NCBI GenBank assembly: GCA_036867785.1
Contig: CP145424.1
Coordinates: 186,001 to 250,000, forward strand
DNA from: Plasmodiophora brassicae
Taxonomy: Eukaryota
Direction: 5' to 3'
Length of the DNA stretch: 64,000 nt
The first letter of the stretch is position 1; each line of letters starts with the position of its first letter. The notes beneath the pieces were generated by a model. That model saw only the letters and a list, made by a program, of their open reading frames with translations, ran no database searches and was not told the origin of the DNA. The position numbers and the translations under genes were made by a program. Shown here one piece after another: positions 1-49,207 of this stretch.

Positions 1-1157
1 TCGATTGCATTCTCTCGTGGCAACAGCCGACCGACGTCCACGGGGTGCAGGTGTTTCTCGGGTTCGCTAACTTCTATCGCAAGTTCGTTCCCCACTTCGC
101 AGAGCTGGCCTTACCGCTGACAAATCTCACGCGTGATAACGTGCCGTTTCGTTGGGATCAATCGGCAGACGCCGCATTCACGGCGCTCAAGGTTGCTTTC
201 ACGTCAGCCCCTGTCCTTGCTCATTTCGACCCAGATCGCCCGTGCGAAGTGGAAACGGATGCTTCCGATTTCGCGGTGGCAATGGTCTTGTCGCAGCGGG
301 GCCCCGATGATGAACTTCACCCGTTGGCATTCTTCTCGCGCAAGCTCGCGCCTACTGATATCAATTTTCCTATCTACGACAAGGAACTTCTCGCGGTCGT
401 CCAGACCTTCGAAAAGTGGCGTCAGTTCCTGGACTCATCGCGACACCAGACCGTCATCCACAGCGATCATCGGAATCTGGAATACTTCACCAGCACTCAC
501 AAACTGAATCGTCGTCAAGTCCGATGGTCCCAACTGCTTAACGAATTTGATTTCGTTATCCAACACCGACCAGGCCGTCTTCATGGCAAGGCGGACGCCC
601 TGACTCGTCGCCCCGAATACGCGCCTTCTGATCAGGATGAGGTTGTGCTCCAGCAGTCACTCCTGCTCCTTCCAGCGTCGCGGCTCGGGCCAGGACCCCT
701 ACAGGAGGTCCAGATCAACGTGGCCGATACTACAACCGACGCACTCCTCGATCGTATCCGCCGCAACCAAGCTTCCGACCCGTTTGTGTGCCGCACCCGT
801 CAGCGACTTCATCGTCCGAGCGGCCGCCACTTTAGCGTCCGAGACGACGTTCTATACCGTGGACATTCTGTGGTCGTCTCTGGCGATGACTGCAAACTGG
901 ACATTCTTCGCTCTTTCCACGATAATGTCACGGCGGGCCACCTCGGTATTCGGAAAACCGTGCAGTTAATTCGCCGCGAATTTTGGTGGCCGGGTTTGAC
1001 CCCTTTCGTAGCCCGTTACGTGCTCTCCTGCGATACGTGTCGTCGGACTAAGACGGCTCGGCACAAGCCCTTCGGATTACTCATGCCACTCCCTCTGCCG
1101 ACGACTCTTTGGCGGTCCATTTCCATGGACTTCGTGGTTAAGCTTCCCTGTTCGAAC

Positions 1158-1341
1158 TGTCGAACAACGTATCCACTACGACCAGCAGCACATGCCTGCA
1201 GCACGTGAACGCCGTCACGCACTCCGCGACTCCGTGCCCGCCGGCGTTGGCAACCGTTACACCGTCGGCGACTACGTCGCCACTGTAACGTCCGCCGCAC
1301 ACGCCGTACGTAATACATCCACTTCATTATTGTCCTTCTCA
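1158..1341 (+). repeat. Copia 5' LTR
   Basis: Direct repeat identical to 6210-6393. Confidence 0.97.
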
Positions 1342-1384
1342 GATTAACAGTCGTATAGGCGCAGGCGCTGAGCCTCTACTCGCC

Positions 1385-4300: not shown

Positions 4301-6340
4301 AAGGCGCCGGAGGCGGCCAATCGTTCGTCGACACGGTGGTCCTCGACGGTCGACGCCTGGTTCCAGAATCCGACCCTAACGTTCCCGACACAGCGCCCTC
4401 CTCGTCGCTCCCGCCGACTGATCCGGCATTGGCAGCAGGTTGAGGAGCGCCGTCTGATCGATCAGGCCATCAGGTCCAACCGTCCGACATGTCGCGGCGC
4501 AGCTGCCAAGGCATGTCGAGCCAAGGTATCCGCCCCGATCGACCCAGCCCGTCTACCACGACCCGACCTGTCGAAGCTGAAAGCGACCGACATTCCCGTA
4601 CCCAACTCAATGGCCGATGCCCTCTCATCACCTTTCGCTGGCCACTGGTGGGACGCCGCCGTCACCCAGATGGCAACACTGGACGCCAAGGACACGTTCG
4701 GCCCGCTAATCGACCTGCCGAAAAGTAAGATCGCTGTTGGCGCCAAGTGGGTGTTCCGAGTGAAGTCCTCGCTCAGTGGCAACGGTGGCATCCGCAAGTT
4801 CACCGCCCGACTCTGTGCTCAGGGCTTCCGACAACGCCCCGGCATCGACTTCGACGATACGTTCGCGCCGACCGCCCGTGCCACTGCGTTCCTCGTTATC
4901 CTAGCGCTCGCGGCGCAGCACGGCCTGCATCTTCGCCAGGTCGACTGGGTGGCCGCATACCTGAACGCCGACATGCTCCATGATGTTTACATTCGTCAGC
5001 CGGATGGCTTCACCGATCATCACGTCCCGTACCGAGTTCGTCAACTGCAAAAGGCCCTTTATGGAACGAAACAAGGCGCCGAACGTTGGTACAAGACGCT
5101 TCGGGAGATGCTGTTATCACTCGGATTCGAATCGATCATCGCGGACCCCTGCGTCTTCCGGTACGATCGCGATGGAAAGTTCATGATCATGTCGGTGCAC
5201 ACCGACGACGGTCTGCTGGCGTACAATGACGTCCCGTTCGCGGAATCCGTTCTCGAGAAGCTCTCCACGATGGCCGAGATCACCGATCAAGGTGAACCGT
5301 CGACCCTGCTTGGCATGCGCATCCGACGCGAACCTGGCACCGGCGCCATCACCCTTGACCAAGCCGAGTACATCGAGAAGGTGTTGAGCGACTTCAACAT
5401 GTCGCATTGTCATCCGGTCGACACGCCGCACCAGCCTGGCGTTCACCTATCAACGACAATGAGTCCACAAAGCGACCTCGACCGTGACGAAATGGCGACC
5501 AAGCCGTACCTCAAACTTATTGGCTGCCTGACATGGCTCGCCCATCGATGCCGTCCCGACATCGCGTACATAACGAATGTACTGGCCCAATTCTCCTCGA
5601 ATCCCGGCATCCAGCATTGGCGTGCGGGGCAACGCGTTCTTAAGTACCTCGCCGGCACCATGACGCACGGCATCCGATACGAACGCCAGCCCGAAGATCG
5701 TCTGATCGCATACGCCGACGCTGATTGGGCATCCGACCCTGACACGCGACGGTCGCGCTCCGGCCACATCATCCTGCTGGCTGGCGGCCCCGTGCACTGG
5801 CAGTCACGTCGCCAAGACCTGGGCGCAGTCAAAGTTAGCTTATCGTCCACACATGCAGAGATCAAGTCGCTGTGTGCTGTTACCCGCCAGTTGGCCTGGA
5901 TCCGGTCATTCCTGACCGAAATCGGCTTCGCACGCTCCAGTCCGACGATCGTATACGAGGACAATCAAGGCGCGAAGGCCTGGTCTGGCTATCGTCGGAT
6001 GGATGATCGCACGAAGGACATCGAGGTGCAGTTTCACTACACCCGGGAGGCCGTCGAGGCCAGTTTGATCGTGGTCCACAAGTGCCCGTCCGCCGAGATG
6101 GCTGCAGACTACCTCACGAAGCCCGCTCTCAGCACCTCGTATCATGCGAACCTGCTCCTGGCCGGCATCATCGACACAAGTCCCAGGCCGTGTGCTGCTG
6201 GAGGGGGCGTGTCGAACAACGTATCCACTACGACCAGCAGCACATGCCTGCAGCACGTGAACGCCGTCACGCACTCCGCGACTCCGTGCCCGCCGGCGTT
6301 GGCAACCGTTACACCGTCGGCGACTACGTCGCCACTGTAA
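1385..6340 (+). CDS. Copia Gag-Pol polyprotein (Gag, protease, integrase, RT, RNase H), 1651 aa
   Basis: Protease LLDSACS, WHARTGH..C..C, integrase (HSDLSG, QTDGGGEY, PEQNGRAE), RT (KWVFRVK, QKALYGTKQ, HTDD), RNase H (YADADWA) in Copia order PR-IN-RT-RH. Confidence 0.97.
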   Translation: MAERQATPNTDDDPLRHLSLEEIDTRIAEAEATIARQEKIDRLRVLQQQLARPTSCPSTPAMPIIAEAHSRSDAGRLPMPKFEGTPDSFTSWVQTAALWFRNRGYADVIGINEDGSPTATTGTAHDPALEAAAREILLVHMLDHKIASALSLFQAGSAAKCWRVLFQAYSPSSLASVVRAVRDLVTVQHMPGESVATYAARVQAAAHRVRSTVPTEMLSLTDALVAVLILANASSDLDAVVAGLHNRALDTLPSVSEVVGSLTSEEIRVQDVRDRHDAFQTANRSSCATSTRPRGPRRNESCVFHPGSKHTNGECTLQRHIWYRDSNAKSNTSSPTSNEYPTSGAHPIDPAPEPMRALSARHAIDVYANSVGLLDSACSTTMTPLRRHLSCYRQGTGPEVELADLSRTTTSGRGVTSFGMDVQATSIDSLHVPRLGQALVSVGQLTRSGHKIVFDGDTAKIYSGANWTAPVGQPVAVSQRGHDNLYRIPLSAPTSAPGTLHSARVCSLIASSVSCRVAKVTAAAPAVWHARTGHLGYGNLRILHKRCRGMKFDGPIPRPQDRCPCAACLLAKGKRSSFPPSTSRARRVGDLVHSDLSGRWPVVGVGGFEYYQTMLDDSSRYLSVYLLRRKSEALDVIKHYDARLRNQEGRGIRTFQTDGGGEYNSKACVLFYNESGILHRKSVPYTPEQNGRAESVNHTLCGIESSIRCHSRMPDSTWPWSLSYSAILYNIHPRSVLPGRRTSFEAARRALPNISALRVYGCDAYAMRPHPATKKPSKLEPRRVRAVFIGFTPGMKAWRFYDVDREDTFESTTAEFLETSFTFGFGRSSPASSSSAPPSSPESSSAPNVDTIVPTPVSSDAVMAPLPSTSASSLAASPPEPPSPAAASSPSEIVRPSRSPSPDDVSTDEDDDDAEDDPDYEGSASSNDSPNEAADPDVHDNSDAADIVDHNVIDVPRPRRSNRRRQPPGEWWKAPEAANRSSTRWSSTVDAWFQNPTLTFPTQRPPRRSRRLIRHWQQVEERRLIDQAIRSNRPTCRGAAAKACRAKVSAPIDPARLPRPDLSKLKATDIPVPNSMADALSSPFAGHWWDAAVTQMATLDAKDTFGPLIDLPKSKIAVGAKWVFRVKSSLSGNGGIRKFTARLCAQGFRQRPGIDFDDTFAPTARATAFLVILALAAQHGLHLRQVDWVAAYLNADMLHDVYIRQPDGFTDHHVPYRVRQLQKALYGTKQGAERWYKTLREMLLSLGFESIIADPCVFRYDRDGKFMIMSVHTDDGLLAYNDVPFAESVLEKLSTMAEITDQGEPSTLLGMRIRREPGTGAITLDQAEYIEKVLSDFNMSHCHPVDTPHQPGVHLSTTMSPQSDLDRDEMATKPYLKLIGCLTWLAHRCRPDIAYITNVLAQFSSNPGIQHWRAGQRVLKYLAGTMTHGIRYERQPEDRLIAYADADWASDPDTRRSRSGHIILLAGGPVHWQSRRQDLGAVKVSLSSTHAEIKSLCAVTRQLAWIRSFLTEIGFARSSPTIVYEDNQGAKAWSGYRRMDDRTKDIEVQFHYTREAVEASLIVVHKCPSAEMAADYLTKPALSTSYHANLLLAGIIDTSPRPCAAGGGVSNNVSTTTSSTCLQHVNAVTHSATPCPPALATVTPSATTSPL

Positions 6341-6393
6341 CGTCCGCCGCACACGCCGTACGTAATACATCCACTTCATTATTGTCCTTCTCA
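6210..6393 (+). repeat. Copia 3' LTR
   Basis: Direct repeat identical to 1158-1341, preceded by the PPT. Confidence 0.97.
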
Positions 6394-7482
6394 CGAACGG
6401 GTATGACTCCATCCTCGTCGTCGTTGACCGCCTCTCCAAGATGGCGCATTTTATTCCTTGCAACGAAACAATATCATCTGTTGACCTTGCTGCCTTGTTT
6501 CTGGCAAATATCTTCCGCTTACATGGCCTCCCTGACGATATCGTGTCGGACCGAGGGCCTCAGTTCATCGCTAAGTTCTGGAAGCAACTTCTCATACGTC
6601 TCGGCGTGCAACGCAACCTGTCTTCTTCGCGGCACCCAGAATCCGATGGCCAAACCGAGCGGGTGAACCAAGTCATGGAACAGTATCTCCGTGCGTACGT
6701 CAACTACTTACAAGACGACTGGCAGCCGCTCCTTGCCGTAGCTGAATTTTCGTACAACAATGCAGACCATACCGCGACAGGTATGTCACCGTTTTTCGCG
6801 AACTATGGCTACCACCCACGTGTGATGGACGTGCAACCTCGACCGTCTACCAGCGCCAATCCGACTGCCGACGAGCGCGCTGAGTCCTTGCAGAGGATTC
6901 GCAACTTCTTGACCCGTCAACTGACTCGAGCTTCTGCCGATTCCAAACGATTCGCCGACGCGAAGCGGCAAACATCTCCGAAGTTTCAGGTGGGCGACTT
7001 AGTGATGCTACGTCGCGGCTCCCTGAAAACTCTGCGACCCTGCGCGAAGCTCGACTACCAATTTTTAGGGCCATTCCCTATCAGCCAACTCGTCAATCCG
7101 GTTGCTTTTCAACTCGACCTTCCTGCCGAGTTCCGTATCCACAATGTATTTCATGTATCTCAACTCGAGCCTTACGTCGCCAACCTTATCCCTGGTCGCA
7201 CTCAACCTCCTCCTCCACCGATTCTTCTCGCGGATGACGATGCTCCCCTCTTCATCGTTCACGATGTCCTCGATTCTCGATATCGCCGTTCCCGATTGGA
7301 ATATTTGATCGACTGGGAAGGGTACCCGCCTTCTGAACGCACGTGGGAACCCGCAGGAGAACTACACGGTACAGGTGGGCTCAACGAATTGTTGGTTAAC
7401 TTCCACGCTCGGTACCCAACCAAGCCGGGGCCGAAGTGGCGAAAGCCACCCCGCCGGCCGGCCCGATGACAGGGGACTATAC

Positions 7483-7616
7483 TGTTATGGCACGGCCGCG
7501 ACGGGGGTCGCGCAGCCGCGCAGTTTGAATAAACGTCCACGGCAACCGACGGCTTCGGCAGTCGGTTAATTCCGTGTTGTGGAGACAATAGTCGTCCGTC
7601 GTGTCGTCTCCTGACA
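7483..7616 (+). repeat. Gypsy family A 3' LTR (134 bp)
   Basis: TGTTATGG...CCTGACA; reverse complement of 17556-17689 and 23261-23394. Confidence 0.96.
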
Positions 7617-11920: not shown

Positions 11921-14900
11921 TGTACTACAAAAGTAGTAGCTCTGACCGTATGCATGGGATCGTCCCACTGTACCTTTGAATGAACAGTTCTCTTATAAGG
12001 CGTCTAGCGTGCGTCCAGCTTGACGGCAGTCGTGTGGACCGCTGACGGCGCACCGAAAGCACAAAAACGTTTTTGTGTCGTGGAGAATTCACCTGAACTT
12101 GATCGCGTGAGCCGATCGCCCTGAACGCAAGTGAACCTGAACCTGAATCCTGACCGCGACGATGAACGGCGCGGGACGTAGACGGGCGCCTGCTGCAGAG
12201 CCGGCCGACCCAGTCGCCATGGAAGAAGTACATGAACAGCCTGAAGAACAACCCGCTGGGCATGACAACGTCAACGGAGCTGCCGGAAACATGCTGAAGG
12301 GGCAAACTCCGATCTTTACACCTGTGACACCCCCGCAATTGAACAGCACTGACTACAAATGTGTGACAGAATTCTTGACGAAGTACAAGAAGTATGCGGC
12401 TCTGATTGAAGATCGACGAAATCGCCACAGCCAGGATATCTACCCGGAAGCGATGAAGAGCTGTATGCCTGACAGGATCCTCAACAGCATTGCGAAATTT
12501 CGTGTTCGGAAACCTGTTCAGAACATTACTGATGACGACATCAAAGGATACCTCGTGAAGATTCAGCGAGAAGCATTGTGCGAGGACATGAACGATTGCG
12601 ACATCGATGAGCTCATACGAAAGACCATCGTTATGGACATGAAAATTGGTAACTGCGAAGCCCGAGTTAACGCTCACTTTGGCAAATTTGATCAGTTTAT
12701 CGAAGACCATGGCCTTGAATCTCATTTCTCTGGATCCGACGCTAAGGTAAAGCGCAAGATCAAATTGCTTCGAAAAGGTATACGTCCAGAAATCCTACGC
12801 AAACAACTGAAGAAGGATATGAAGTATGGTAACTATGAACACTGCTGGAAGGACGAAATGGCGTTCTTTGACCTTGTAGACAAACGAGCCAAAGAGCAGA
12901 ACCTATTCTTCCCGAAGAAAGTTCCCGATGATAACAACAATCGAAAGAATGGTAAGACCACCAATGCTCGGTCTAACGGGAAAAATGAACCACACAGCAC
13001 CACGAAGAATGACGACATCAACTCGCCGAAGAAGAAATTGAATGGTAAGAATGAGACCAATAGGATTCCTGAACATGAGGGTAAACAACCCCCTGAAGGC
13101 GGTTGCGCTTTCTGTCAAGGACCTCATTGGCTACCGATGTGCCCCAAGGTAAGTAAAACAGAACGGCAAGAGTTACTGAAGAAAATGAAATGAGACAAAA
13201 CACCGTCTAATGACGAAACGACGACACACAGCGGCAACGAAGCAGCGAAGACGAAGAATAAGCGGTTGGCAACGAGTACATCAACCCTAGGAACTGTCCG
13301 AGTTCACGAGTGCGCTACGTTCAACTACGAGTTTGATAGTGCATGCACGAAGACAACGCTTTCATTGGAGCAGTTATCGCAGATCCAACGAGAAAAATTT
13401 GTTGCGGTAAGAATGTTTGAGAAACCACTGATGAGTACCCTTGCGATAGGCAACGTACAAACGAAGATTGTTGGGTACGCTCTGCTTGACCTCAAGTTCA
13501 CGTCGCAGCATGGAACTGTTGCAACTATCAGACGGGTCGAGTGCGCGATCTCTCAAGAACCTATGAGTGATGGTACTCTCTTAGTAGGCGTTGCTGAATT
13601 GGATGCTTTAGGGATCAACCCCGACACCATCTTTGAAGAGAAATATTCGAACACCTCGGAAACTGATGTGACTACTTACAGCCGAGATCCAGCGATTGAA
13701 ATGTTACGCAGCAAGCGATTGCAGATGATCGCCCCACAGGATGAAGATGAGGAACAAGATGATCCTGATCCTGGAAAGGATTATGACGTTGAAGTTGGGA
13801 TATTCAACAAAACTGAGGTACAAATTGCATGTGACAACATGATTGAACGTGCACTTCAGGAAGGATTCCCTCCCGACGACAAAGAACGATTGCGCTCTAT
13901 AGTGCGCAAATACCCAATATGGCGAACGAAGATCGACAATATGCCACCGGCTAAGGTAACTCCGATGAGACTGCATGTCAAAGCAGATGTTAGGCCGGTT
14001 GTATGTCAACCACCAAAGTACCCGGAGACACACCAAGCGTTTCTCCACCAGCACACAACGACACTGATGGAAAACGGTCTCGTGTACCGCAATCCACATG
14101 CGCGTTTCGCCTCACGAGCGAATGTCCATGAGAAGAAAGACTTCGGTAACCGTGGATATCGAATGACCGCGAATTTTAAACCTGTGAATAGGCAGATTGA
14201 CCGCATCAATTGGCCCATGCCTCACATCGATGTTATTCTGATGTATTTACGTTCAGCTACGATTTTCATGCTGTTTGATGCATTTAAGGGATATTGGCAA
14301 TTCCCTTTGCACCCTGATTCTCAAGAGTTCTGTTCCTTCATGACTCACGAAGGTGTTTTTACGCCAACTCGTATCATGCAAGGTATTATTGGTGCCGTAT
14401 TCGCCTTCCAGTCTGGAATGCAAGAAGTTCTTGGCGACCTGCTGTATCTAGCCGCATTGTTGTGGATCGATGACGTACTGGGCTACGTCCGGGATCTCGC
14501 CGAATACTTCGTAATATTGGAACGTATTCTGAAACGTTTCCATGAGTATGGTGTCATGTTGAATCCGAACCGGTGCCACCTGTGGTTACGGAAAGTGACC
14601 TGGTGCGTCCGTGTTATATCTGCTGAAGGAATATCGTTTGACGAGTCATTGATCAATGCTCTGAAAACCTTGGCAACTCCTCAGAATGCTGCTGATCTTC
14701 AGCAATTTCTCTGTGCGCTCAATTGGATGCGTACTTCGATTCCTCGTTTTTCTGAACGCGTTCATCCCTTACAACAACTACTTCTGGAATCGTCACGTAA
14801 GATTCGCAGCCTGAAGAAAGGTCAGTTACGCCGTGTCACGCTTAGTTCGGTTGGATGGAATGAGGAACATACGCGCTGTTTCGAACGATTGAAGCAACAA

Positions 14901-17239
14901 TTGGAGGAATTGATGCTGATGGCACACCCGAAAGATGGGTTTATTCGATGTATATTCCCTGATGCTTCGGACCATCATTGGTCTGTCTTCTTGACACAAA
15001 TTCCTTGTGATGATTTGCCGAAACCACTTGTCGATCAACGTCATGAACCGATGGCTTTCATTTCTGGTTCGTTCCGTCACAATCAGTGTAGACCAGACCG
15101 CCCAACTAGGCCACGGGAGCAGCTGCTCTCGTGGCCTAGTTGGGCGGTCTGATCTACAAAACATCTCACCGACGGGAGTTCGAGCCTCCTCGAAGTCCGC
15201 CGGGGCAATCATTGAGAAGGAAGGTTTTGCGATTATCGAAGGATGCTATCGCTACCGACACTACTTGCATTCGGCTGATGCTTTTCGTATCTTCACTGAT
15301 CATCGCAACTTGATGTATATTATGGACCCATTTCGTTTCTCTACGAATTTGAGTCGCATGACTGGAGATCGAATTGAGAGATGGAGATTGCAATTGAAGT
15401 CGTTCAATTTTGAAATCGAACACATTTCTGGAGACGAGAATGTCTGGGCGGACCTTGGAACACGATGGGGAGCGAACGTCGAACCCGAGTCTTGTGCTCA
15501 GACCATATCTGCTCGTGCCTTACGTTTTACTCACAAAGCTGCACGTTTTGACGACTACCGTATTCATGACGAGTTCGTCTGGCCTACTGTTTCTGAAATT
15601 GCTCAGTCTCAATCTGAATATTGTATTGCACATGGAATTGAACCTGATGCATCCATGCTCACCTTGGAAGGAACGTCGACTATCGTGCGACGAAATTCTG
15701 ATCGTCTGTTTTCTACACCTGATTATCAGATTTGGATCCCAAATGAATCGTTGATTCTCAGGATCATGATCATTGCTCATATGGGATTATCCGGACACCT
15801 TGTTGAATCGGCAACCTTGGCTACGATTCTTTCTCACTTTTGGTGGCCTGGAATTGACAAGTCTGTTGCAGAATTTGTTAGTCGATGTTTGCATTGTCTT
15901 CGAAATCGACATGGAACTGCTGTACCGCGTCCATTTGGATATGCTTTGCATGGTTCGAAACCGAACGCTGTCTTGCATTATGATTTTCTGTTTATCGAGA
16001 AACCGCGAGCATCTTGCCATCATGCACTCCGGTATGTTCTTGTACTGAAAGACGACTTCTCGGGATTTGTTGAAATTGTCCCTTCTGAATCTGCTGATCA
16101 CTTTGTTGTTGTTGATAGTCTTTTGAATTGGTTCAAACGTTTTGGTATTGTTTATCAACACGTATCGGATCAAGGCTCTCATTTTATGAATCAAGTGGTG
16201 AATGATTTGCTACAACGACTTCACATTGCACACCACTTCACTACTGCTTACACCCCTTGGGCGAACGGAACCGTCGAGGTTGTCAATCGTCGCATTCTAG
16301 ATCTGTTTCTGATGAAGTCCCTAAATGTACAAGACTGGCCTGATTTGATTCCGGTGATTAACATGGTGCTCAATCATACGATTCGACCTCGCATCGGATA
16401 TGCTCCTGTGACGATTTTTACTGGTCTTGAACCAAGTACTTTGTTATCTACTATCTTTGTTACCCGTCTTGACGCTACCCTTGACCTGCCAATAACACCT
16501 GATCGATTACGTGAATCGACTGCTGACTTGATATCGGCTATGGACGACATGCACAAAGATGTTTCGCACCGTCTAGCCAAACAACGTCGCTTACGGCACG
16601 AATCACGCAAGCACCAGCGTAATGTGAAACCGATCAACTTCTCTATTAATTGGTGATTATGTCCTGGTTGCTAAGCGTTCTACTGCGCGCAAGACTACGT
16701 CTAATTGGACTGGTCCTTACCAAATCGTTGAAGCTGTCAATCCACATGTCTACACTGTCCAAGACTTGATTACGAAAGATCTGTCTACCGTACATGCGCA
16801 ACGCTTGAAATTCTACCATGATTCATCTCTGAATGTCACTTCGGACCTGCTACACAATATTGCTTTGACTGGTAACACCTACGTGATTGAACAAATTGAT
16901 GATATTCGAATCGATCCTGTTTCTGGAGATGTCCAACTACACGTTCGTTGGCTAGGTTTTCAGGATGATGATGCCACATGGGAACCATTTGAAACCATCA
17001 AAGATGATACTCCTGACATCGTCCGACAATTTCTGGCATCACGCTCTGACACATTGTCCTGCACCCTGTTGCACGATTTTTGAAACAGGGGAGTGTACTA
17101 CAAAAGTAGTAGCTCAGCTGACCGTATGCATGGGATCGTCCCACTGTACCTTTGAATAAACAGTTCTCTTATAAGGCGTCTAGCGTGCGTCCAGCTTGTC
17201 AGCAGTCGTGTGGACCGCTGACGGCGCACCGAAAGCACA
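11921..17239 (+). mobile_element. Ty3/Gypsy LTR retrotransposon family B, full length but degenerate
   Basis: LTRs 11921-12063 and 17094-17239 differ by a 3-bp indel and 3 substitutions; TSD ATGTG (11916-11920, 17240-17244); PPT AAACAGGGGAG. Gag 12162-13193 with CAFCQGPHWLPMC; RT (DAFKGYWQ, LLWIDD); RNase H (PDASD, IEKEGF); integrase (LHYDF, VSDQGSHF, NGTVE); chromodomain 16766-17083. Confidence 0.96.
12162..17083 (+). pseudogene. Family B gag-pol with lesions
   Basis: In-frame TGA at 13191-13193, an insertion with frame change in RNase H near 15087-15205, and a frameshift near 16645 (F-S-I-G-D-Y-V-L disrupted). Confidence 0.88.
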
Positions 17240-17702
17240 ATGTGTTGCTAGGGCTCAGAATGCCGCGTTACTACAAAGGGTCGAGGGTATGAGTCCAGAT
17301 GAGCGCCCCGCTGATCTCCGGACGCTCGAGGGCAGAAACGCTCAAGTTTTGTGCAACCAAGTGGCATACCCTGGTGGTCAATTCCCAACTGGACCTGCAT
17401 CCAAGCCCGCAATCAATTTGCGGCCTGTGTGATTAGATCGAGAGCGCCCGACTTGGTGCCACGAGCGCATCCGATTTTGTAAAGAGTACTATGACTGGCG
17501 GCGGCGGCTGCGCTGGTCTCCTTACAGTCACGAGCAGTTCCTTGGGACTCTAGAGTGTCAGGAGACGACACGACGGACGACTATTGTCTCCACAACACGG
17601 AATTAACCGACTGCCGAAGCCGTCGGTTGCCGTGGACGTTTATTCAAACTGCGCGGCTGCGCGACCCCCGTCGCGGCCGTGCCATAACAGTATAGTCCCC
17701 TG

Positions 17703-20700
17703 TCATCGGGCCGGCCGGCGGGGTGGCTTTCGCCACTTCGGCCCCGGCTTGGTTGGGTACCGAGCGTGGAAGTTAACCAACAATTCGTTGAGCCCACCTG
17801 TACCGTGTAGTTCTCCTGCGGGTTCCCACGTGCGTTCAGAAGGCGGGTACCCTTCCCAGTCGATCAAATATTCCAATCGGGAACGGCGATATCGAGAATC
17901 GAGGACATCGTGAACGATGAAGAGGGGAGCATCGTCATCCGCGAGAAGAATCGGTGGAGGAGGAGGTTGAGTGCGACCAGGGATAAGGTTGGCGACGTAA
18001 GGCTCGAGTTGAGATACATGAAATACATTGTGGATACGGAACTCGGCAGGAAGGTCGAGTTGAAAAGCAACCGGATTGACGAGTTGGCTGATAGGGAATG
18101 GCCCTAAAAATTGGTAGTCGAGCTTCGCGCAGGGTCGCAGAGTTTTCAGGGAGCCCGCGACGTAGCATCACTAAGTCGCCCACCTGAAACTTCGGAGACG
18201 TTTGCCGCTTCGCGTCGGCGAATCGTTTGGAATCGGCAGAAGCTCGAGTCAGTTGACGGGTCAAGAAGTTGCGAATCCTCTGCAAGGACTCAGCGCGCTC
18301 GTCGGCAGTCGGATTGGCGCTGGTAGACGGTCGAGGTTGCACGTCCATCACACGTGGGTGGTAGCCATAGTTCGCGAAAAACGGTGACATACCTGTCGCG
18401 GTATGGTCTGCATTGTTGTACGAAAATTCAGCTACGGCAAGGAGCGGCTGCCAGTCGTCTTGTAAGTAGTTGACGTACGCACGGAGATACTGTTCCATGA
18501 CTTGGTTCACCCGCTCGGTTTGGCCATCGGATTCTGGGTGCCGCGAAGAAGACAGGTTGCGTTGCACGCCGAGACGTATGAGAAGTTGCTTCCAGAACTT
18601 AGCGATGAACTGAGGCCCTCGGTCCGACACGATATCGTCAGGGAGGCCATGTAAGCGGAAGATATTTGCCAGAAACAAGGCAGCAAGGTCAACAGATGAT
18701 ATTGTTTCGTTGCAAGGAATAAAATGCGCCATCTTGGAGAGGCGGTCAACGACGACGAGGATGGAGTCATACCCGTTCGAACAGGGAAGCTTAACCACGA
18801 AGTCCATGGAAATGGACCGCCAAAGAGTCGTCGGCAGAGGGAGTGGCATGAGTAATCCGAAGGGCTTGTGCCGAGCCGTCTTAGTCCGACGACACGTATC
18901 GCAGGAGAGCACGTAACGGGCTACGAAAGGGGTCAAACCCGGCCACCAAAATTCGCGGCGAATTAACTGCACGGTTTTCCGAATACCGAGGTGGCCCGCC
19001 GTGACATTATCGTGGAAAGAGCGAAGAATGTCCAGTTTGCAGTCATCGCCAGAGACGACCACAGAATGTCCACGGTATAGAACGTCGTCTCGGACGCTAA
19101 AGTGGCGGCCGCTCGGACGATGAAGTCGCTGACGGGTGCGGCACACAAACGGGTCGGAAGCTTGGTTGCGGCGGATACGATCGAGGAGTGCGTCGGTTGT
19201 AGTATCGGCCACGTTGATCTGGACCTCCTGTAGGGGTCCTGGCCCGAGCCGCGACGCTGGAAGGAGCAGGAGTGACTGCTGGAGCACAACCTCATCCTGA
19301 TCAGAAGGCGCGTATTCGGGGCGACGAGTCAGGGCGTCCGCCTTGCCATGAAGACGGCCTGGTCGGTGTTGGATAACGAAATCAAATTCGTTAAGCAGTT
19401 GGGACCATCGGACTTGACGACGATTCAGTTTGTGAGTGCTGGTGAAGTATTCCAGATTCCGATGATCGCTGTGGATGACGGTCTGGTGTCGCGATGAGTC
19501 CAGGAACTGACGCCACTTTTCGAAGGTCTGGACGACCGCGAGAAGTTCCTTGTCGTAGATAGGAAAATTGATATCAGTAGGCGCGAGCTTGCGCGAGAAG
19601 AATGCCAACGGGTGAAGTTCATCATCGGGGCCCCGCTGCGACAAGACCATTGCCACCGCGAAATCGGAAGCATCCGTTTCCACTTCGCACGGGCGATCTG
19701 GGTCGAAATGAGCAAGGACAGGGGCTGACGTGAAAGCAACCTTGAGCGCCGTGAATGCGGCGTCTGCCGATTGATCCCAACGAAACGGCACGTTATCACG
19801 CGTGAGATTTGTCAGCGGTAAGGCCAGCTCTGCGAAGTGGGGAACGAACTTGCGATAGAAGTTAGCGAACCCGAGAAACACCTGCACCCCGTGGACGTCG
19901 GTCGGCTGTTGCCACGAGAGAATGCAATCGATCCTGGAGGGGTCAACCCGTATCCCGGAGGAGGACACCAAGAAACCTAAAAATTCCACTTCGACCGTAT
20001 TGAAGACGCACTTCTCCAGTTTAGCGTGGAGTTGAGCAGTGCGGAGTCGGTGTAGGACGAGACGGACATGGCGTTCATGGTCCTCGGGAGTCGATGAGTA
20101 GATCAGGATGTCGTCCAAGTAGATTACCACAAATACATCAAGGAAATCCTTGAACGTCTCGTTCATGAAGTACTGGAAGGAGGCCGGCGCGTTGGCTAAG
20201 CCAAACGGCATGACTAAGTACTCGAACAAGCCGTACGGCGTGCGGAAGGCCGTCTTCCACTCATCGCCTTCTCGGATCCGAACTTGGTTATAGGCGCTGC
20301 GGAGGTCGATTTTCGTGAAGATTGTTCCGGAGCCGAGCTGGATCAAGAGCTGGTCGATAAGTGGAACCGGATATCGGTTCTTGATAGTAACAGAGTTTAG
20401 ACCACGGTAATCTACGCACAGGCGAAGACTACCGTCCTTCTTCTTGACGAACAGAATTGGGGCGCCCGCCGATGAACGGGATGGACGAATGAGATTAGCT
20501 TCCAGGTTGATCCTGAGATACTCCTTCAAGGCTTCTTGTTCCCGGGGTGACAGCCCGTACAGACGGCAATACGGCGGGTCGCCACCAGGTTTCAGGTCAA
20601 TCGGACAGTCGAACGATCGGTGATCAGGAAGAGTCGTTGAGTTCGCCTTATCGAACACGTCAGTAAACTCCTGATATTGCGGCGGTAGTTCCGCGGCGTG

Positions 20701-22111
20701 GGCAGCGGAATCGGACGGTGACCATGTGTAGTGGATGGCATAGCAGTCTGCGCCGTCTTGCACGTCGTCTAAGAACGGTTCGGCGGAAACAAACGCGATG
20801 GAGAGCGGCTCCACAGGTTCGCCTGGCGGCTCCGTAGGTAGTCGACGGATCCGTTCCAACCGACGACGACGTGGAGGCCTGTGGCACGGAAGTCAGCAAG
20901 GCGTTGTCGATGACGCAGGGATCCGGAAGCATGGAAGGCGCACGTCTCGGGGCGGAGCTGTTGGCGATCAATACCAGGAGGGCGACCAGCCCCACGAGCG
21001 CACACAGCTGGGAGGCGAGTGACCCGTGTGGACTGCTGCGCCCTGAGCAGGCGAAAGGGGCGCGTCGACCCGCGCGGCGACGTGCCGGCGAAACCGAGGG
21101 ATGTTCTGAACAAGAGGGGGCCGGTGCCAAGCACGAAAGAGGCGGAAGCGGTGGCGGAACAGTGGCGGCAGCTGCGGTCGCCGACTCAGGCGGTGCGGCG
21201 GAATTCTCTGGTCGACCAGCGGCAGACACGGGCGGCACGAGTTCCGGACCGTCGACCAGAGAAGCAGCCACCGGCACTAATGGCTGGTCAGTAGCAGGCG
21301 CAGGCTGCACTAGTTCCGGAACGTCGACGGCGACCAGAGAAGCACCCACCGGTGGTAACGGCTGGGCAGTAACGGGAGACGACGAGGCGACGAAGTGATC
21401 AATGTCCAAAGGCGGTGCGCTCGGAAGCGGGCCGGGTTCGACGGGCAACCCCTCGGCGCAGCATAATAACGCGGCCGTGTCAGGAGAGCAGACGGCCGTG
21501 TCAGGAGAGCAGGCGACTGTGGCATCAGAAAGGGCGACCGTGTCAGCAGAGCAGGCAACCGTGTCGGCAGAGCCGGTGGGGTTCCCACCGGCCCGAGCAT
21601 CGAGCCACAAACGCGGTGATCCCCGAGTAATGCGTTCGCGTACGGTGCGACGAAGCCAGTCGATATCCGGATTGTGCTGTTCGAGCCAGGGCAGTCCCAG
21701 GATTATACGGTGACTCGGAGCGTCAATAACGTTGAGGACAATTGTGTCGTGGAAGGCCCCGTTGACGGAACACGGCAATGGCGCCGTCTCCAATGTGATC
21801 GGTGGCAGGTGACGGCCGTCAACAACCTTGACTGGAATCGGTTGTGCTTTGGAGCGGAGTGGCAGGCCATAGCGGCGGGCGAAACCGGCGTCGACGAAGG
21901 AAGATGTCGCTCCACAGTCCAAAAGGGCCGTCGTCGCCCACGGGCGATCGCCCGTGGATTGAAACGGAACGAATAAATGATGAGATGAATGAACAGTTGC
22001 GAAACAAAGAGCAGTGACGAGGACAGTGTCGGGTTGCGAGGACGAAGAACATTCGTGTATCGAGAGAGGGTGAGCTGCCAACCCGGGAGCAGTCACCCTT
22101 GACCATTTCCC
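17703..22111 (-). pseudogene. Family A Pol (PR, long spacer, RT, RNase H, IN, chromodomain) with two frame breaks
   Basis: PR LLDCGATSSF in ORF 20660-22168; RT YLDD in ORF 17935-20859 in a different frame. A 1-bp insertion near 18155 relative to copy 1 shifts the chromodomain out of frame. Confidence 0.85.
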
Positions 22112-23079
22112 GGCGGACGATGTGGGCATGTTGCGACCATATGGCCGGGCTGCCGGCAATACATGCACAATCCTTGCCGTTTGCAGCGCTCGCGCTCCTC
22201 CGGCGTTAGCTTGGTCCGAGTGGTCGGCGAGGCATCCGTAGCTAGGAGCGCGTGTGCCGGGGCATAGAGGGGGGCCAGGCGCGCTGCCTCTTTGACCATG
22301 GCGTCGAATGTCGGCGGATTGAGCTTGAAGAGCTCGGTCGAAAGCTCTGGGGCGAGCGACTTGCGGAACTTCGTCGCCAGGCGCTTTGACGGGAGACTGT
22401 ACTCGCCCTTCGAGGCCGACTGTACGGCGTTGTACAGGTACATGAACCGACGCAGATGAGCATCGAACGGTCCCGTTTGACGAAGGGCATCGAACCGGGA
22501 TTCGAGGGTCTCGACGTCCGGTTCTGGAAAATTAAACCGGAGCAGCGCGGCGAACGCGGCTGGGGAGGCGGTCGCATCCAGTTGACGAAAAACGAAACGC
22601 GCTTCGCCCTTCAGGCAGCTAGCCAGGAGCGCACGAGCGCCCGCTGACAGTGGCTGGGTCGACGAGAGATCGACGCGGGCAATGCTAGCGAATAGCGCCA
22701 GCCACTCGCTCGCCGGCAGGTCGTCGGAATTGCCGGAAAATTCGCTCAACGACACCTTAGTCGTCGTGACAACAGGATCGTTGCCATGTGACGACGGCTC
22801 AGCAGATGTTGCCGAGGGATCGGTCATGGGCGTAGGCGGCGTAGAGTGTGGACTGGCAAGCGCGTTGGTAAAGATCTTCAGCTGCTCCTCAGCGCGAGCC
22901 CGCATTTCCGTGAAGAACGCATCCTGTTGGATCTGGAAGGCCCGTAAGGCACCCGCGAGGGCGCGATCGGCGGCGTCCACATCGGCCAAGGTCGTTGGGT
23001 CGATGGGAGAGGGAGGCGTCGTTGGGCACTTGGCTTCGTCAGCCGTCGAGCCCGTCGAGCCGGAGCGCGTGACCGTCAT
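22093..23079 (-). CDS. Family A Gag
   Basis: Retrotransposon gag-like domain and [14 protein letters not shown] knuckle; start ATG approximate. Confidence 0.9.
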
Positions 23080-23137
23080 CGAGACGTACACGAGCGAAGA
23101 ACGAAGGGGGCGGACAGGCCGAAGGTAGACGATCGAG

Positions 23138-23240
23138 AGACGATGCGACGACAGACGGTGACGACAGACGGCGACAGACGATGCGACGACAGACGGTGAC
23201 GACAGACAGCGACAGACGATGCGACGACAGACGGTGACGA
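23138..23240. repeat. Tandem repeat (about 38-bp unit, about 2.5 copies) in the family A 5' leader
   Basis: AGACGATGCGACGACAGACGGTGACGACAGAC(G/A)GCGAC repeated. Confidence 0.85.
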
Positions 23241-23464
23241 ACGGTTAAGGTCGGTTAAGATGTCAGGAGACGACACGACGGACGACTATTGTCTCCACAA
23301 CACGGAATTAACCGACTGCCGAAGCCGTCGGTTGCCGTGGACGTTTATTCAAACTGCGCGGCTGCGCGACCCCCGTCGCGGCCGTGCCATAACATAGAGG
23401 AGCCCCGGAAGGTCAAAGTGGAAGCGAGACAACAACAACTGTAACGAGCATCGAGGGACAGAAT

Positions 23465-31318: not shown

Positions 31319-33950
<2,632 letters not shown>

Positions 33951-35141: not shown

Positions 35142-36597
35142 ATGGGTGCATGTCTAAGCTCGACCGACAACGAAGAGTTTCGCGGCAGCGTCGTGCTGTC
35201 GTCGATCCTCGACAGGGAGCGTAAGGACGCGGCGTCGCAGTACGTGATCCTGTTCCTGGGCACGGGTGAGAGCGGCAAGTCGACCTTCTTCAAGCAGCTG
35301 AAGATCATCCACGGCGGCGGCATCGACAAGGGCGACCGGGCCGCCATCCGCTCCTGCATACGCACCATGATCATCTCCGACGTCATGATTCTGATTCGAG
35401 GGTGCCTGCTGCCCAACATGGCCGGCCTGATCGGCCAGGACGTCAAAGTGTCCCAGGATATCATCGACATGCTCTGTGGCGCCGAACTGTCGCCCCAGAC
35501 CGTGAAGCAGGCCATCATCGGCGCGTCGCCCGACGACAACTACCTGTCGCCAATGGCCGGCGATCTCATACACGCCATCTGGAACGATCCAATCGTCAAG
35601 AAGGTCGGGCGATCCGAGGTTGTGCATCGCTGTGTGCGCACGCATGCTGACCAATGGGAGCGCAGGTCTACGACAACCGGCGCATGTTCCATCTCGGCGA
35701 CCACGTGTCGTACTTCTTCGACAAGATCAAGACGATCGCCTCTTCCGACTGGGAGCCCACCCAGGACGACTGCGTTCACGCGAGACAAAAGACGACTGGC
35801 GTCGTCGAACAGATGCTGGTGGACCCGAAGACTCAGACCAGTATGAACCTCCAGCGGTTCATGATGCAACCGTGCTGTGCTAACAAATGTGTGTTCGGCT
35901 CGGCAGCCCTGCGCTGCGTAGACGTAGGAGGACAGAGAAGCGAACGCAGGAAGTGGTACGGCGGGTTGTAGACGTCCATGCCATAACACGTGCCTGACAG
36001 CGATGGGCAACAGGGTCGGGCTGTTCTCGCAGGCGACCTGCATAGCGTTCGTCGTCGGCATATCCGAGTACGACCAGACGTGCGCTGAAGACGGCGAGAC
36101 GCTGCGCTCTGTGGAGTCGTTCAACGTGTTCAAGTCGGTATGCCGTGAAGAGCAACTCAAGAAAGCCGGGTTGGTTGCAAACATGGTTCTGGCAATGCCT
36201 ACCTAGTCGGGCGGTCTGACAGTACTCATCTGCAGGATCGTTGTCTTCTTCAACAAGTTAGGTACGCTCCCATGTGGAAACCCTGTTACCTGTGATGTAG
36301 CCATGCATCTGACTGCTGGTGCCAGACTTATTACGGCAGAAGCTGGCGACAGTGCCGTTCGGGCCACCGTACGTGACCGATTTCAATGGGAGTGGGTCAG
36401 CCGAATCCGTTGGTCGATACTTTCGCGACAAGTACCAGGCGGAAGCGACGCTGGCGTTCAGGGAGATCGGCGAGCCGTCGAGACTGGTCCGGTTCTTCCT
36501 GACAACGGCTGTCGACCGGGAAAACGTCAACAAGGTGTTCGAGTCCGTCATCGAAATCGTCATCAGAATCAGCCTGAACAAGTGCGACCTCTGCTAA
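35142..36597 (+). CDS. Heterotrimeric G-protein alpha subunit, paralog 1 (multi-exon)
   Basis: MGAC N-terminus, GTGESGKST, RQKTTG, DVGGQRSERRKW, FFNK-D, TTAVD. Confidence 0.95.
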
Positions 36598-37259
36598 AAG
36601 TCTATCGTTCGCTGCCGGCCCGAATGGCCAGGACAGAATAACAATGTTATAGGGCGTACCTCCAAGGCTCACCTTTGAGGCCGCCCACCAGTATAATGAA
36701 GGACGAATGGTCGCATTGCAGGGGCAAGTCCAAAGAGTTGAACAGGGATCACAAGTGTTATAATTATTAGGATCCCTGGTTCTGGCTCATCGTCAGCCCC
36801 ATCGACGTTATTAGTAGTACCACCCGGCGGTCCTTGCTCCACCAGTGCCTTTTGCTCATATCATCGCCACATCGGCCGATCAGGGTGTATCCCACACCAG
36901 GCTTGGCGACAATACGAGGACAGCGCTGTGCAGAGCAGATACGGGCTGGTGACGTCGACAACGGATCGGATCCGCATGAGCCTCCGTACGAAACCAGTCC
37001 GCAATGCTCGCATGCAGGTCGCCCTTAGCAAGCATCGCACGAGGTAAGCCCAGCAGTGCCTTCTTCGTCATCACCCGCCTCACGCCGATAAGCTGCTAGA
37101 GGTCGTCTAATGGCATCGCCCACGAAGCCCGGTTGGTCGATGACTTTCGACGTGGGCATGCAGGCACGGCACAGAGTCATCCGCGTACGCACTGGCCCAC
37201 ATCAGCTCATGCCCAATTGCGTTCCAGGTCCAGCCACGTCGTAGCCGCCGTGGTCGCCT

Positions 37260-38723
37260 ATGGGGTCGTGTCTCGGGGCGCGCGTCTCTCCTGGCGCGGA
37301 TGAAGAACGTCAGGTCAACAGACTGCTGTCCGCGGAGCTGGAGAAGGAGCAGAAGGCGGCCGCCAAACAGACCGTTATCCTGTTCCTTGGCACTGGCGAG
37401 GGTGGCAAATCGACCTTTTTCAAACAGCTTCGGATCATCCACAACGCGGATCTGACGGCCACCGAGATCGCCTCGCTACGGCAGCAAATACGTTCTATGG
37501 TCATCGCCGATACCGTCACCTTGGTCCGCGGGTGCCTTCTGCCAGAAATGCCGGCCGCCATCGGATGCGGCCTGTCGTTCTCGACCAACCTCGTCGATAT
37601 GCTGAACGGGAGCACTCCCACTCCTGACCTCGTCAGCCACGTCATTGAACTCGCTCCGGTCGATGAGGCCATACTAACGCCAGAGGCCGCCTCACTGATC
37701 GACGCTATCTGGGGCGATCCCGTTGTTCAAAAGGTGTGGCAGAATCTGCCGACGTGCGCATTGCCAACCACGCAGTGAACGTTCGGTGCGCAGGTCTACG
37801 AGCACCGTCGAATGTTTCAGCTGGGTGATCACGCGCAATACTTCTTCAACAAGATCAAAGTGATCGCGCAGGCCGGTTGGCGGCCAACCGCGGACGATAT
37901 GGTCCATGCCAGGCAGAAGTCGACCGGCGTCGTCGAGCAGATTCTGGTCGACCCGGCCGCCGAAATGAGTCAGCCACCCTGGATCAGCATGCATTGTTGA
38001 CGGTGACGTGATGGCGGTGGGACAGATATGAGGTGCATTGATGTTGGTGGTCAACGCAGTGAGCGACGCAAATGGTATTGGGAAACAGCACGCCTCGATG
38101 ACCTGCATATGGGCAACATGAGGTGGCTGAGAGGAGAAACCGTATAGGATCGGTCAATTCTCCCGAGCCACTTGCGTGGCTTTCGTTGTGGGCATCTCCG
38201 AGTACGACCAGACATGCATAGAGGACGGCGAGACTCCGAGGCCCGTCGAATCGTTTAACGTTTTCAAATCGATATGCAGAGAACCTCCGCTGAGGAGCGC
38301 CGGGTCAGTACCAAATAGCTCGCGTTTGCTCAGCTGCGGTGGACACTAATTCTCTTGGTGCAGGATTGTCGTCTTCTTCAATAAGCTAGGTACGATAGCA
38401 TGCCAGTTTGCCACATGCCGATGCTAAGCGAGTGGGCGCTCCTTGGCACAGACCTACTACGCGAGAAACTGTTGAAGGTCCCGTTCGGGCAACCGTACGT
38501 GACCGACTACACGGGAAGCGGGTCGCCCGAATCCGTGGGCCGATACTATAGAGACAAGTACCAGCAGGAGGCCGACGCGGCCTTCCAAGAAATCGGCGAA
38601 CCTAACCGAACCATCAAGTTCTTCCTGACGACCGCCGTCGATAGAGATAACGTCAAGAAGGTCTTCAGTGCCGTCGTTGAGATTGTCACCAAATTGACCC
38701 TGGAACATGCCCATCTTTTATGA
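37260..38723 (+). CDS. Heterotrimeric G-protein alpha subunit, paralog 2 (multi-exon)
   Basis: MGSC N-terminus, GTGEGGKST, RQKSTG, DVGGQRSERRKW, FFNK-D, TTAVD; introns at the same positions as paralog 1. Confidence 0.95.
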
Positions 38724-45704: not shown

Positions 45705-47539
45705 ATGGACGACGATCAGGACGCATACGAGGAGGCCCTGCACCTTGTAGGTCGCGGCGTTGGTTACCGGCGGGACCTGTGTCGATGACGTGCTGCAGGC
45801 CGAGGTCGTCGAGACGTTCAGGGTAGGGGGCGCGCCCCTGCGTGCCCGGCCGGTCGAAACCCTGATCTGCCCCTGTAGAAGTACGCCCGCCTGGCGATGA
45901 ACGAGCTGCAGCGCCATGCGAACCACTTCAAGGCAGGCCTGTTGAGTGCTGTATGGGCGGTCGCCCCGCCATCTAATCGTGGTTGTTCAGGCGCTCCCGG
46001 ACAAGTACAGGCGGTTGCTGCCCGACGTGCCCCGGTATCACAAGGAGGGCCTCGACCGCGTCGTTCTCAACCAGAAATTCATCGACGTCATCGTGAACGC
46101 ATCCGCCAGCGCGTTCCAGTCGAACGCGTCAGTAAGCGGACCGGGCCAACGCATTCGTGCCCCGAGGTCGTCTCACTGGATGCCGCCGCAGTGCCGCTGT
46201 CGACCCCGGCAAGGTCGTCGCCGTCACGCCTGCAAACTTTGTCGGTTGCCATCGCCGGCGCTTCCATGCATGCGAATGGTCACGTACTCATAGCGGTGGT
46301 GGTCCACAGGAGAAGATCAAGTCGACGCTGAGGCAATTCGTTCGGGAGTGGTCCGCCGATGGCGCCGACGAGGTACGCCGCGTCGTTCTTCGGTCGCGTA
46401 TTCTGGGCCCTGTCAGACACATCTGCACACAGCGTGGGCAGAGCTATGGGCGCCTGCTGCAGACGCTGTGCGACCTGTTCCCCGCCGACAAATGTGACCG
46501 CGGCCAGATCCGCGTCCTGACGCCGGGATCGGGCCTGGGACGCCTGACCTGGGAGGTCGCCCGACTCGGGTTCATGTCCGAAGGCAATGAGTTCTCGTAC
46601 TTCATGCTGATTGGATCGCATTTCATGCTGAACTGGTCCGTCTGCCCATGTCCTGCCTGCATGGGTGGGTAGAGGGGGGTGTGGACCTGTTTGCGCTGAC
46701 CGCCGTTGCTCATCAGTTACCCGGCTGACCGACCTGCTCTCGACCTGTACCCGTACGTCAGTCAGACGACGAACGTGGTGTCGCAGGCTGATCGGTTGCG
46801 ACGATTTCAAGTTCCAGATGTCCACCCTGCATCAACCCCTATTTCGGGTATGTTCAGTGTCGCGTGCCGTCCTTGTTCCTGGGCATCGACCCCACACTGG
46901 TTGACACCAGGGTCCATGTCGATGGTCGCCGGCGACTTCCTTGAAGTGTACACCGATGATGTCGACGGATTTGACGCCATCGTCACCTGTTTCTTCATCG
47001 ATACTGGTTGTTCGGCCCCTGAAACGGTTGCTCCAGTGTCCCTCGCCCGCTGACCCGTGCTTCGCAGCGCACAACATCGTCCAGTACATCGAAACGATCG
47101 CACGAATTCTCAAACCAGGCGGTTACTGGATTAACCTGGGTCATTGGAACGGGGCCACTGAGATGCTGCGGCAGCGTACTGATGGCCATTGCAGGTCCCC
47201 TGTTGTACCATTTCAGCGACACGAACGAGCTGTCCATTGGTGCGTCTATGCTGCTCTGGGCAAACTGTCACGCGTTGCATCGCTAATGTGCTGCTGCTCG
47301 CAGAACTGTCCTACGAGGAAGTGAAGGCGCTGTTGCCGACGTTCGGATTGACAATGATTGTATGTCGGCGCGCGGACAGGCATCTTTGTCTGCTTGGGAC
47401 TGATATTGCTGCTGCGGCTGCTGTGCAGGATGAGACCCTTCCTGTCGATTGCTTCTACGTGGGCAACGCGCGGTCCATGATGCAATTCCTGTACAAGTGC
47501 GCCTTCTTCACGTGCCAGAAACAATCGCCAATGCACTAA
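45705..47539 (+). CDS. CARNMT1: Carnosine N-methyltransferase (N2227 family), multi-exon
   Basis: KSTLRQFVREWS, VLTPGSGLGRL, GNEFSYFML, MSMVAGDFLEVY, VTCFFIDTAHNI, WINLGPLLYHF. Confidence 0.93.
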
Positions 47540-48052
47540 CACGGTGTCATGGATTGGCGCGCTCTCGGCCAGTTGTACTCGGTTAGCATTTCGCGCGTGA
47601 CCTGTGCGACCCACGTTGCGAGGGGCGGCCGTTGATGACAGTGGCCGGGAGGCGCCAGTTCGTGTCCAGTCTCGACAGTGCTGTCGGGGGACCGGATCGA
47701 CGATACTGGCGATCAAAGGAACGGGATCCGAATCGGCAGCCGTTTGAGGAGCGTATGCTCTTCCAGCGTGGCGTCCCTGTGTACGGCAGCAATTGCCGGT
47801 CCTGTTCGATGTTGTCGATGCTCGGACGGCTGGCACGGTGCCACCTTCTGGAACATCGTGGCGGTAGTGTATATATACGTGTGGACGGAAAGCGGCGGCC
47901 TGATGCGAGCAAGGCGGAGGGAAGGCATGACTCACCAGAGGCCATGACGTCAACGTTCCGGTGCGATCTGGATCCGGGTTGGCCGGTGGGCACAAACGTG
48001 AAACGTCGCCCAGATCCCTACCCGAGACAGACGCACACGCAAACAGCCATCC

Positions 48053-48505: not shown

Positions 48506-49207
48506 TGTTAAAATGACCACATACGCACGTCCTCCCTATTGTCAGCACCCAGACGCGAAACGGCAAAGGCCACTGGAGCAACGCCGAGACCGGACAGCAG
48601 TCGGCCGACAATGCCTTTTACACGAAACCGTTTGGCTGATGTATTGGCGCTCTGCTGCTGCCGCTTCTCTATGGTTTTACTAGTCACATGATATGGGCAT
48701 GATCCAGGCCGGCCCCAACAGTGTCTCGAAGCAGCGACGTCGGCAGCAGCGGCCCGACTTGGCATGCAATGATCCCATTGGATCACGGAAACAGTACTAT
48801 CGCACACAGTATCCTGCTCTTTCGAAACTTGCCAGGGACACGCTAATGCTGTTGGGCTAATGGTGATGGACTCGTCAGTCCCCTCGGAGTGTGCGTTTCT
48901 CTGTACCTGGAGGCTATGACGCTACGTTCCTGCAGGTTCGCACGTCCGATGCGAACTTGTCGGTGATGATAACGTTTCCGATCTGGCATAGACGCTTATT
49001 CAGAGGCATGTATTATTCATTTGTCATTTCGTCTGCCACAACAAGAGTGTCTATGCCATGAAAACTAGTCGGTTAACCGATGGCTAACCAGTGGTCCTCG
49101 GTTAACCGGGACCGACCGCAAAATGGGCAGCCCCCCTCAAGCCGATGGGCTTGCCATTCCGCAAACCGCGTTGTGTTGCGTTGCGCCTGTTCCAGTCCAG
49201 CGGCCCC

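Follow-up and report, generated by a model that had tools for sequence, protein, structure and literature searches.

A Ty1/copia element nested in a gypsy element

The window, by which we mean the whole 64-kb stretch of Plasmodiophora brassicae DNA analysed here, carries an LTR retrotransposon whose features are collected in Table 1. The two LTRs agree at 184 of 184 positions, and their limits are exact because the bases beyond the repeat differ on both sides (C against G on the left, G against C on the right). The element is of the Ty1/copia type both by its Pfam domain order, with the integrase ahead of the reverse transcriptase in the polyprotein, and by its direct LTRs of the TG...CA form with a 5-bp target-site duplication. 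The frame enters the 3' LTR, which holds its final 131 nt (6210-6340); the polypurine-like tract thus lies within coding sequence, and the 5' LTR carries this tail as well.

Table 1. Features of the copia element, its putative priming sites and the interrupted gypsy element (positions in the window; aa, residues of the copia polyprotein).
Feature	Position	Strand	Remarks
Gypsy pol, left part (RNase H / integrase zinc region)	1-1157	+	ORF 282..1208 runs into the copia LTR
Target-site duplication, left copy, CGAAC	1153-1157	+	identical pentamer at 6394-6398
5' LTR	1158-1341	+	184 bp, TGT...TCA; twin of 6210-6393
Primer-binding site GATTAACAGTCGTA	1342-1355	+	complementary to positions 27-40 of tRNA-Asn(GUU)
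Possible site extension	1356		A26, in 85/120 matched genes listed
Possible site extension	1357		T25, in 1/120 matched genes listed
gag-PR-IN-RT polyprotein, single ORF, 1651 aa	1385-6340	+	ORF and Pfam
Retrotran_gag_2	aa 133-271		23.7 bits, under the 27-bit Pfam cut-off
Pol_BBD	aa 373-449		Pfam
gag_pre-integrs	aa 511-572		27.6 bits, slightly under the 28.4 cut-off
rve	aa 590-687		Pfam
SH3_retrovirus	aa 752-822		Pfam
RVT_2	aa 1108-1349		168.7 bits, Pfam
Polypurine-like tract GGAGGGGGCG	6200-6209	+	adjoins the 3' LTR; putative plus-strand primer, by position
3' LTR	6210-6393	+	184-bp twin of 1158-1341
Target-site duplication, right copy, CGAAC	6394-6398	+	identical pentamer at 1153-1157
Gypsy, right part	6394-7616	+	integrase and chromodomain-like tail to ~7469; 3' LTR from 7483

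The element lies within a gypsy integrase frame that is broken at 1157 and picks up again past 6398 (ORF 6441..7469), which makes it a clean and recent nested insertion. Its identical LTRs, its duplication, its open 1651-aa frame and its purine tract give it the appearance of a replication-competent element, and as far as its letters can tell they support an autonomous, recently inserted and intact Ty1/copia retrotransposon of P. brassicae, in agreement with an initial annotation that had called it intact and very young. No further copia copies were found in the 64-kb window with blastn or tblastn.

Over the region searched, the copia frame is 100% identical to a P. brassicae protein at NCBI; the next relatives of the polyprotein are metagenome proteins at 59% identity, and the nearest named matches outside the host, at 30-38% identity, are polyproteins from fungi, oomycetes and arachnids. 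The corresponding 90% protein cluster has six members, the named ones being all from P. brassicae: two are full-length proteins of 1651 aa, a single residue of the 1651 setting them apart, which is too little to inform on conservation within the family, and the other four are fragments 198-672 aa long. Among the public sequencing runs listed, 20 of 24, from 10 studies, contain 87-95% of the element's sampled words. Diverged relatives were also sought in viral contigs, where a protein query gave 72 pattern stretches and a query built on an alignment of 15 sequences gave 14, with none confirmed in either case.

Other repeats of the window

The Ty3/gypsy family that hosts the copia element has a second copy at 17556-23394, on the minus strand, with 134-bp LTRs that are 100% identical and a TAGAG duplication. 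The family, as represented at 7483-7616 and 17556-23394, is without a TGG site; 2 nt past its 5' LTR stands TTAACCGAC, which is complementary to GTCGGTTAA at LTR positions 79-87, some 30 nt downstream of AATAAA. This 9-nt match was reached by just 12 of 2000 shuffles of the LTR, and by such complementarity the family resembles elements with Tf1-type self-priming.

A third gypsy element (11923-17240), encoding RVT_1, RNase H and integrase in frames broken into three pieces, is older, with 142-bp LTRs that are 92% alike; no primer site could be recognised in it, its 6-nt LTR match being equalled in 633 of 2000 shuffles. Two diverged direct-repeat pairs stand at 35648-38602 and 49206-53241, with 72-94% identity and spacings of ~2.1 kb and ~2.8 kb; they may represent genes duplicated in tandem, or else units of a repeat.

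A tRNA-Asn anticodon arm at the edge of the 5' LTR

The primer-binding site, whose orientation is antisense to that of the tRNA, begins at the very first base past the 5' LTR. Its reverse complement, TACGACTGTTAATC, divides into one strand of the stem (5 nt), the 7-nt loop CTGTTAA with GTT, the anticodon for Asn, in its place, and 2 nt of the opposite stem strand. TGG is absent from the first 30 nt past the LTR, and with it the conventional site for a primer ending in the tRNA 3' CCA; the anticodon-arm site is the element's one plausible primer-binding site. The initial annotation had pointed to the missing TGG, to the motif found instead of it and to its reading as stem, loop and positions 39-40 of a tRNA, and on each of these it is borne out by the coordinates. 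Opposite the anticodon the site reads AAC (GTT, Asn), and not the complement of the initiator tRNA-Met anticodon. G1342 pairs with C40; nucleotide 41 of the tRNA must be G, since it pairs with C29, and would face A1341, so that pairing ends at the LTR edge.

Allowing up to 2 mismatches, the 14-mer occurs only once in the 64-kb window, which is weak evidence because one or more matches turned up in 17 of 100 shuffles as well. The real test against chance is its identity to positions 27-40 of many tRNA-Asn genes that are genuine by prediction, antisense and at the LTR edge. To collect these genes, metagenomes were scanned with a pattern composed of TACGACTGTTAATCGTR (a closed stem of 5 bp), a gap of 8-10 nt and GTTCRA (the T-loop), and at least 119 stretches matched the closed tRNA-Asn arm and T-loop together. 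ARAGORN called tRNA-Asn(gtt) in 117 of the 120 matches listed (91 distinct sequences), a set chosen via the pattern itself and coming mostly from AT-rich metagenome contigs, not from the host; the 3 listed matches that remained without a call are apparently located at contig ends. The predictions show that the motif is a genuine and common tRNA-Asn anticodon arm, as seen in metagenome tRNAs.

Just beyond the arm, position 26 is A in 85 and G in 35 of the 120 listed matches, and position 25 is C in 118, T in one and G in one, from which it follows that complementarity to the element could extend to 15 nt or, with one gene (in L089), to 16 nt. Where 20 nt of downstream sequence were available (117 listed matches), TTTT followed within 15 nt in 31 and CCA was encoded in 6; TTTT runs are a weak sign of eukaryotic origin, since the contigs are mostly AT-rich. 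As a negative control we used the other tRNAs that ARAGORN predicted in the listed matched loci (541 in all, 420 of them non-Asn): the 420 reached at most 7 nt of exact complementarity at 0-5 nt from the LTR edge, and among the 34 tRNA-Met genes in the matched loci listed there was no match of 6 nt or more.

tRNA genes in the window and in element-bearing runs

With introns disallowed, ARAGORN found no tRNA genes in the 64 kb of the window. When introns were allowed it proposed a tRNA-Ala at 31845-32541 (606-nt intron) and a tRNA-Arg at 45939-47679 (1649-nt intron); both vanish without introns and are probably false positives.

Contigs of four runs bearing the element were then aligned, at 80% likeness, to a metagenomic tRNA-Asn gene (L041:1260-1360). 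Two of the runs, X15 and X20, gave one contig each over reference positions 17-64, alike at 40 of 48 positions, with the differing letters unplaced. The stems force 3 of the 8 differences, one into the D-stem (GCGC vs GCTC/GAGC) and two into the T-stem (..GG at its 3' end). The others can be accommodated outside positions 27-40, though up to five could fall in the anticodon arm; the gene is thus compatible with a host tRNA-Asn that carries the arm. The 5' part of this gene ends in GTCTGAGTGGCGCAAC, and its 3' part reads GG-CTCGGAC-G followed by TTGACTTTTGC. It is of eukaryote type, with a perfectly paired acceptor (GTCTGAG/CTCGGAC), G as discriminator and TTTT thereafter, and its flanks are GC-rich, as is the window (60% GC); searched for in collections of prokaryote genomes and of viral contigs, these flanks gave 0 matches in each. 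Run X2 had no contig aligning to the tRNA-Asn reference. Run X19 had an ambiguous contig of 92 nt, alike at 40 of 45 positions (L041:1296-1340; 5 other letters); its tRNA has the acceptor GGGCCC../..GGGCCC, A as discriminator and an encoded CCA, and the contig may represent a bacterial or organellar tRNA, perhaps of another tRNA species.

Discussion

The arrangement at the LTR edge suggests a mode of replication in which minus-strand DNA synthesis would be primed inside tRNA-Asn(GUU), and not at the 3' CCA end of a tRNA. The 14 nt past the 5' LTR, or perhaps 15-16, would pair with tRNA positions 27-40 (26/25-40), and the 3'-OH to be extended would be that of nucleotide 40, which lies 3' of the anticodon loop; for extension to start from this nucleotide the tRNA would have to be cut there. 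This would be the priming mode of Hemivirus elements (copia / Ty5) carried out with a different tRNA, and since the register of the site is the nucleotide-40 register printed for those elements, the primer may be taken as a 5' fragment of tRNA-Asn of about 40 nt. By its position, its polarity and the exact identity of the arm, we consider that the primer is most likely such a ~40-nt fragment of tRNA-Asn(GUU), and we infer the whole chain, namely a host tRNA-Asn that carries the arm, a site that is in use and a fragment of this length as primer. The A37 of tRNA-Asn normally bears the t6A modification, an expected obstacle to pairing; the initiator tRNA from which copia and Ty5 prime likewise carries t6A37.

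How the tRNA comes to be cut bears on whether transposition would be tied to host tRNA-half production, as the initial annotation proposed. A whole tRNA-Asn might anneal via an opened anticodon arm and be cut only afterwards, by the RNase H of the element or by a host nuclease, in which case transposition would be independent of host tRNA-half production. The letters of the site fit this course and a half-molecule formed beforehand equally well, and we regard cutting after annealing as possible, if rather unlikely. Kikuchi is said to have found, in 1986, a fragment of ~39 nt on nascent Drosophila copia DNA, which would mean that the fragment exists but leaves the timing of the cut undefined. 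Descriptions of this type of priming in PMC1181622 and PMC10886601 have it start inside the anticodon stem-loop, and the manner and time of tRNA cutting are unstated in them.

Explanations in which tRNA-Asn plays no part fare considerably worse. Another tRNA with a similar arm could prime the element if a mismatch at position 34 were tolerated, tRNA-Lys(CUU) being an example, and tRNA-Lys(ctt/ttt) genes in the matched loci do share the 6 nt TTAATC with the site at offset 0; these 6 nt are, however, all that the Lys genes match exactly, whereas Asn-type arms from the same loci match over the full 14-16 of 14-16 nt, and the anticodon complement AAC is specific for Asn, which makes a substitute of this kind highly improbable. 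Nor do we see much in favour of a chance match or a relic in an element that primes otherwise, through Tf1-type self-priming or through a site further downstream. The gypsy family in the same window looks self-primed, and such a mode would therefore exist in this genome, but a random 14-mer equals a given tRNA arm with a chance of about 1 in 2.7e8, and here the arms of 117 called tRNA-Asn genes among the matches listed are reproduced exactly, with correct polarity and from the correct base. For the copia element itself, self-priming was rejected, the longest complementarity between its LTR and the next 20 nt being 6 nt, a length reached by 729 of 2000 shuffles. We give a chance or relic origin of the match very little credence, and priming from within tRNA-Asn(GUU) continues to be the reading that we prefer.

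Priming of this general kind has precedents. Hemivirus elements are described as primed by a half-tRNA, of which nucleotide 40, within the anticodon stem-loop, provides the 3'-OH that cDNA synthesis extends (PMC1181622). The combination that characterises such priming is also found in P. brassicae, where the site adjoins the 5' LTR, the anticodon-arm match to metagenome tRNAs ends at nucleotide 40 and TGG is missing. When the element is set beside the Hemivirus-type Pseudoviridae (Drosophila copia, 1731, yeast Ty5, Volvox Osser), likenesses and differences are as follows: (i) the Ty1/copia order of domains is common to both. (ii) In both, the primer site adjoins the LTR and is complementary to an anticodon stem-loop, with a start at nucleotide 40 as described in PMC1181622; the shared register that the initial annotation had proposed is therefore upheld. 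(iii) The Hemivirus type uses initiator tRNA-Met, whereas the P. brassicae element matches tRNA-Asn(GUU). (iv) The host is a rhizarian protist, and the likeness drawn here concerns the priming mode.

Primers other than the initiator have been described as well. The plant element Bianca is reported to use a half tRNA-Ile, and Osser, Bryco and part of Gymco-II a half tRNA-Met (PMC6317226); the fungal Copia element FunCo1 is described with an internal tRNA-Lys primer, and LTR families of the Tca2 type in Candida albicans with an internal tRNA-Arg(UCU) primer. Thus FunCo1, the Tca2-type families and Bianca share internal, non-initiator priming with the element described here, but the descriptions consulted name other tRNA species and not Asn. 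The closest case comes from rust fungi, for which PMC10886601 (section 3.6) lists Tyr, Ile and 'Asp' primers in named Copia families and a tRNA-Asn-GTT primer in a lineage of Helenus TRIMs, and states that autonomous Copia families of P. hordei display every Helenus primer variety. What seems to be a single primer class is called 'tRNA-Asp' in two sentences of that paper (with Copia-6_PHord) and 'tRNA-Asn-GTT' in a third, GTT being the anticodon of Asn; because its wording varies in this way, both the identity of the rust precedent, Asn or Asp, and its use by autonomous Copia elements are uncertain. The Puccinia Helenus TRIMs and Copia elements belong to fungal and not rhizarian hosts, and we liken them to ours through the description in the text (PMC10886601) and not letter by letter.

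With internal Arg, Lys, Ile, Tyr and Asn-GTT primers in print, the suggestion of the initial annotation that a tRNA-Asn half-primer was undescribed does not stand. In the literature searched we found no further report of one, although others could exist. By title and abstract, nothing was found on primer sites of Plasmodiophora retrotransposons, and a 2026 preprint on the P. brassicae pangenome treats Copia and Gypsy as repeat classes only and never mentions tRNA. The primer site of P. brassicae is real and of an already described kind of priming, and is new mainly in its host lineage.

The site opens no new mechanism. Its value is that of a clean and apparently active example of internal-tRNA priming from a distant eukaryotic lineage, the Rhizaria. 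Seen alongside the Arg, Lys, Ile, Tyr and Asn/Asp cases already published, it shows how readily copia elements exchange one half-tRNA primer for another; the arms of tRNA-Lys(CUU) and tRNA-Asn(GUU) differ little, so that a change of primer could need no more than one or two substitutions in the site. As a reminder for annotation, LTR finders restricted to tRNA 3' ends will list elements of this sort as having 'no PBS'.

A much bolder view is that this is the first half-tRNA-primed copia lineage beyond animals, fungi and plants, and that it is active, its copying depending on cleavage of tRNA-Asn at nucleotide 40. We think it unlikely that all of this holds. If it did, bursts of transposition would track the conditions that raise tRNA-Asn 5' fragments (starvation, host defence, spore germination), and the remodelling of clubroot isolate genomes would be tied to tRNA-fragment biology in a rhizarian parasite of crops. 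Structural variation in clubroot could owe something to this young and intact copia family, which occurs in runs from 10 studies.
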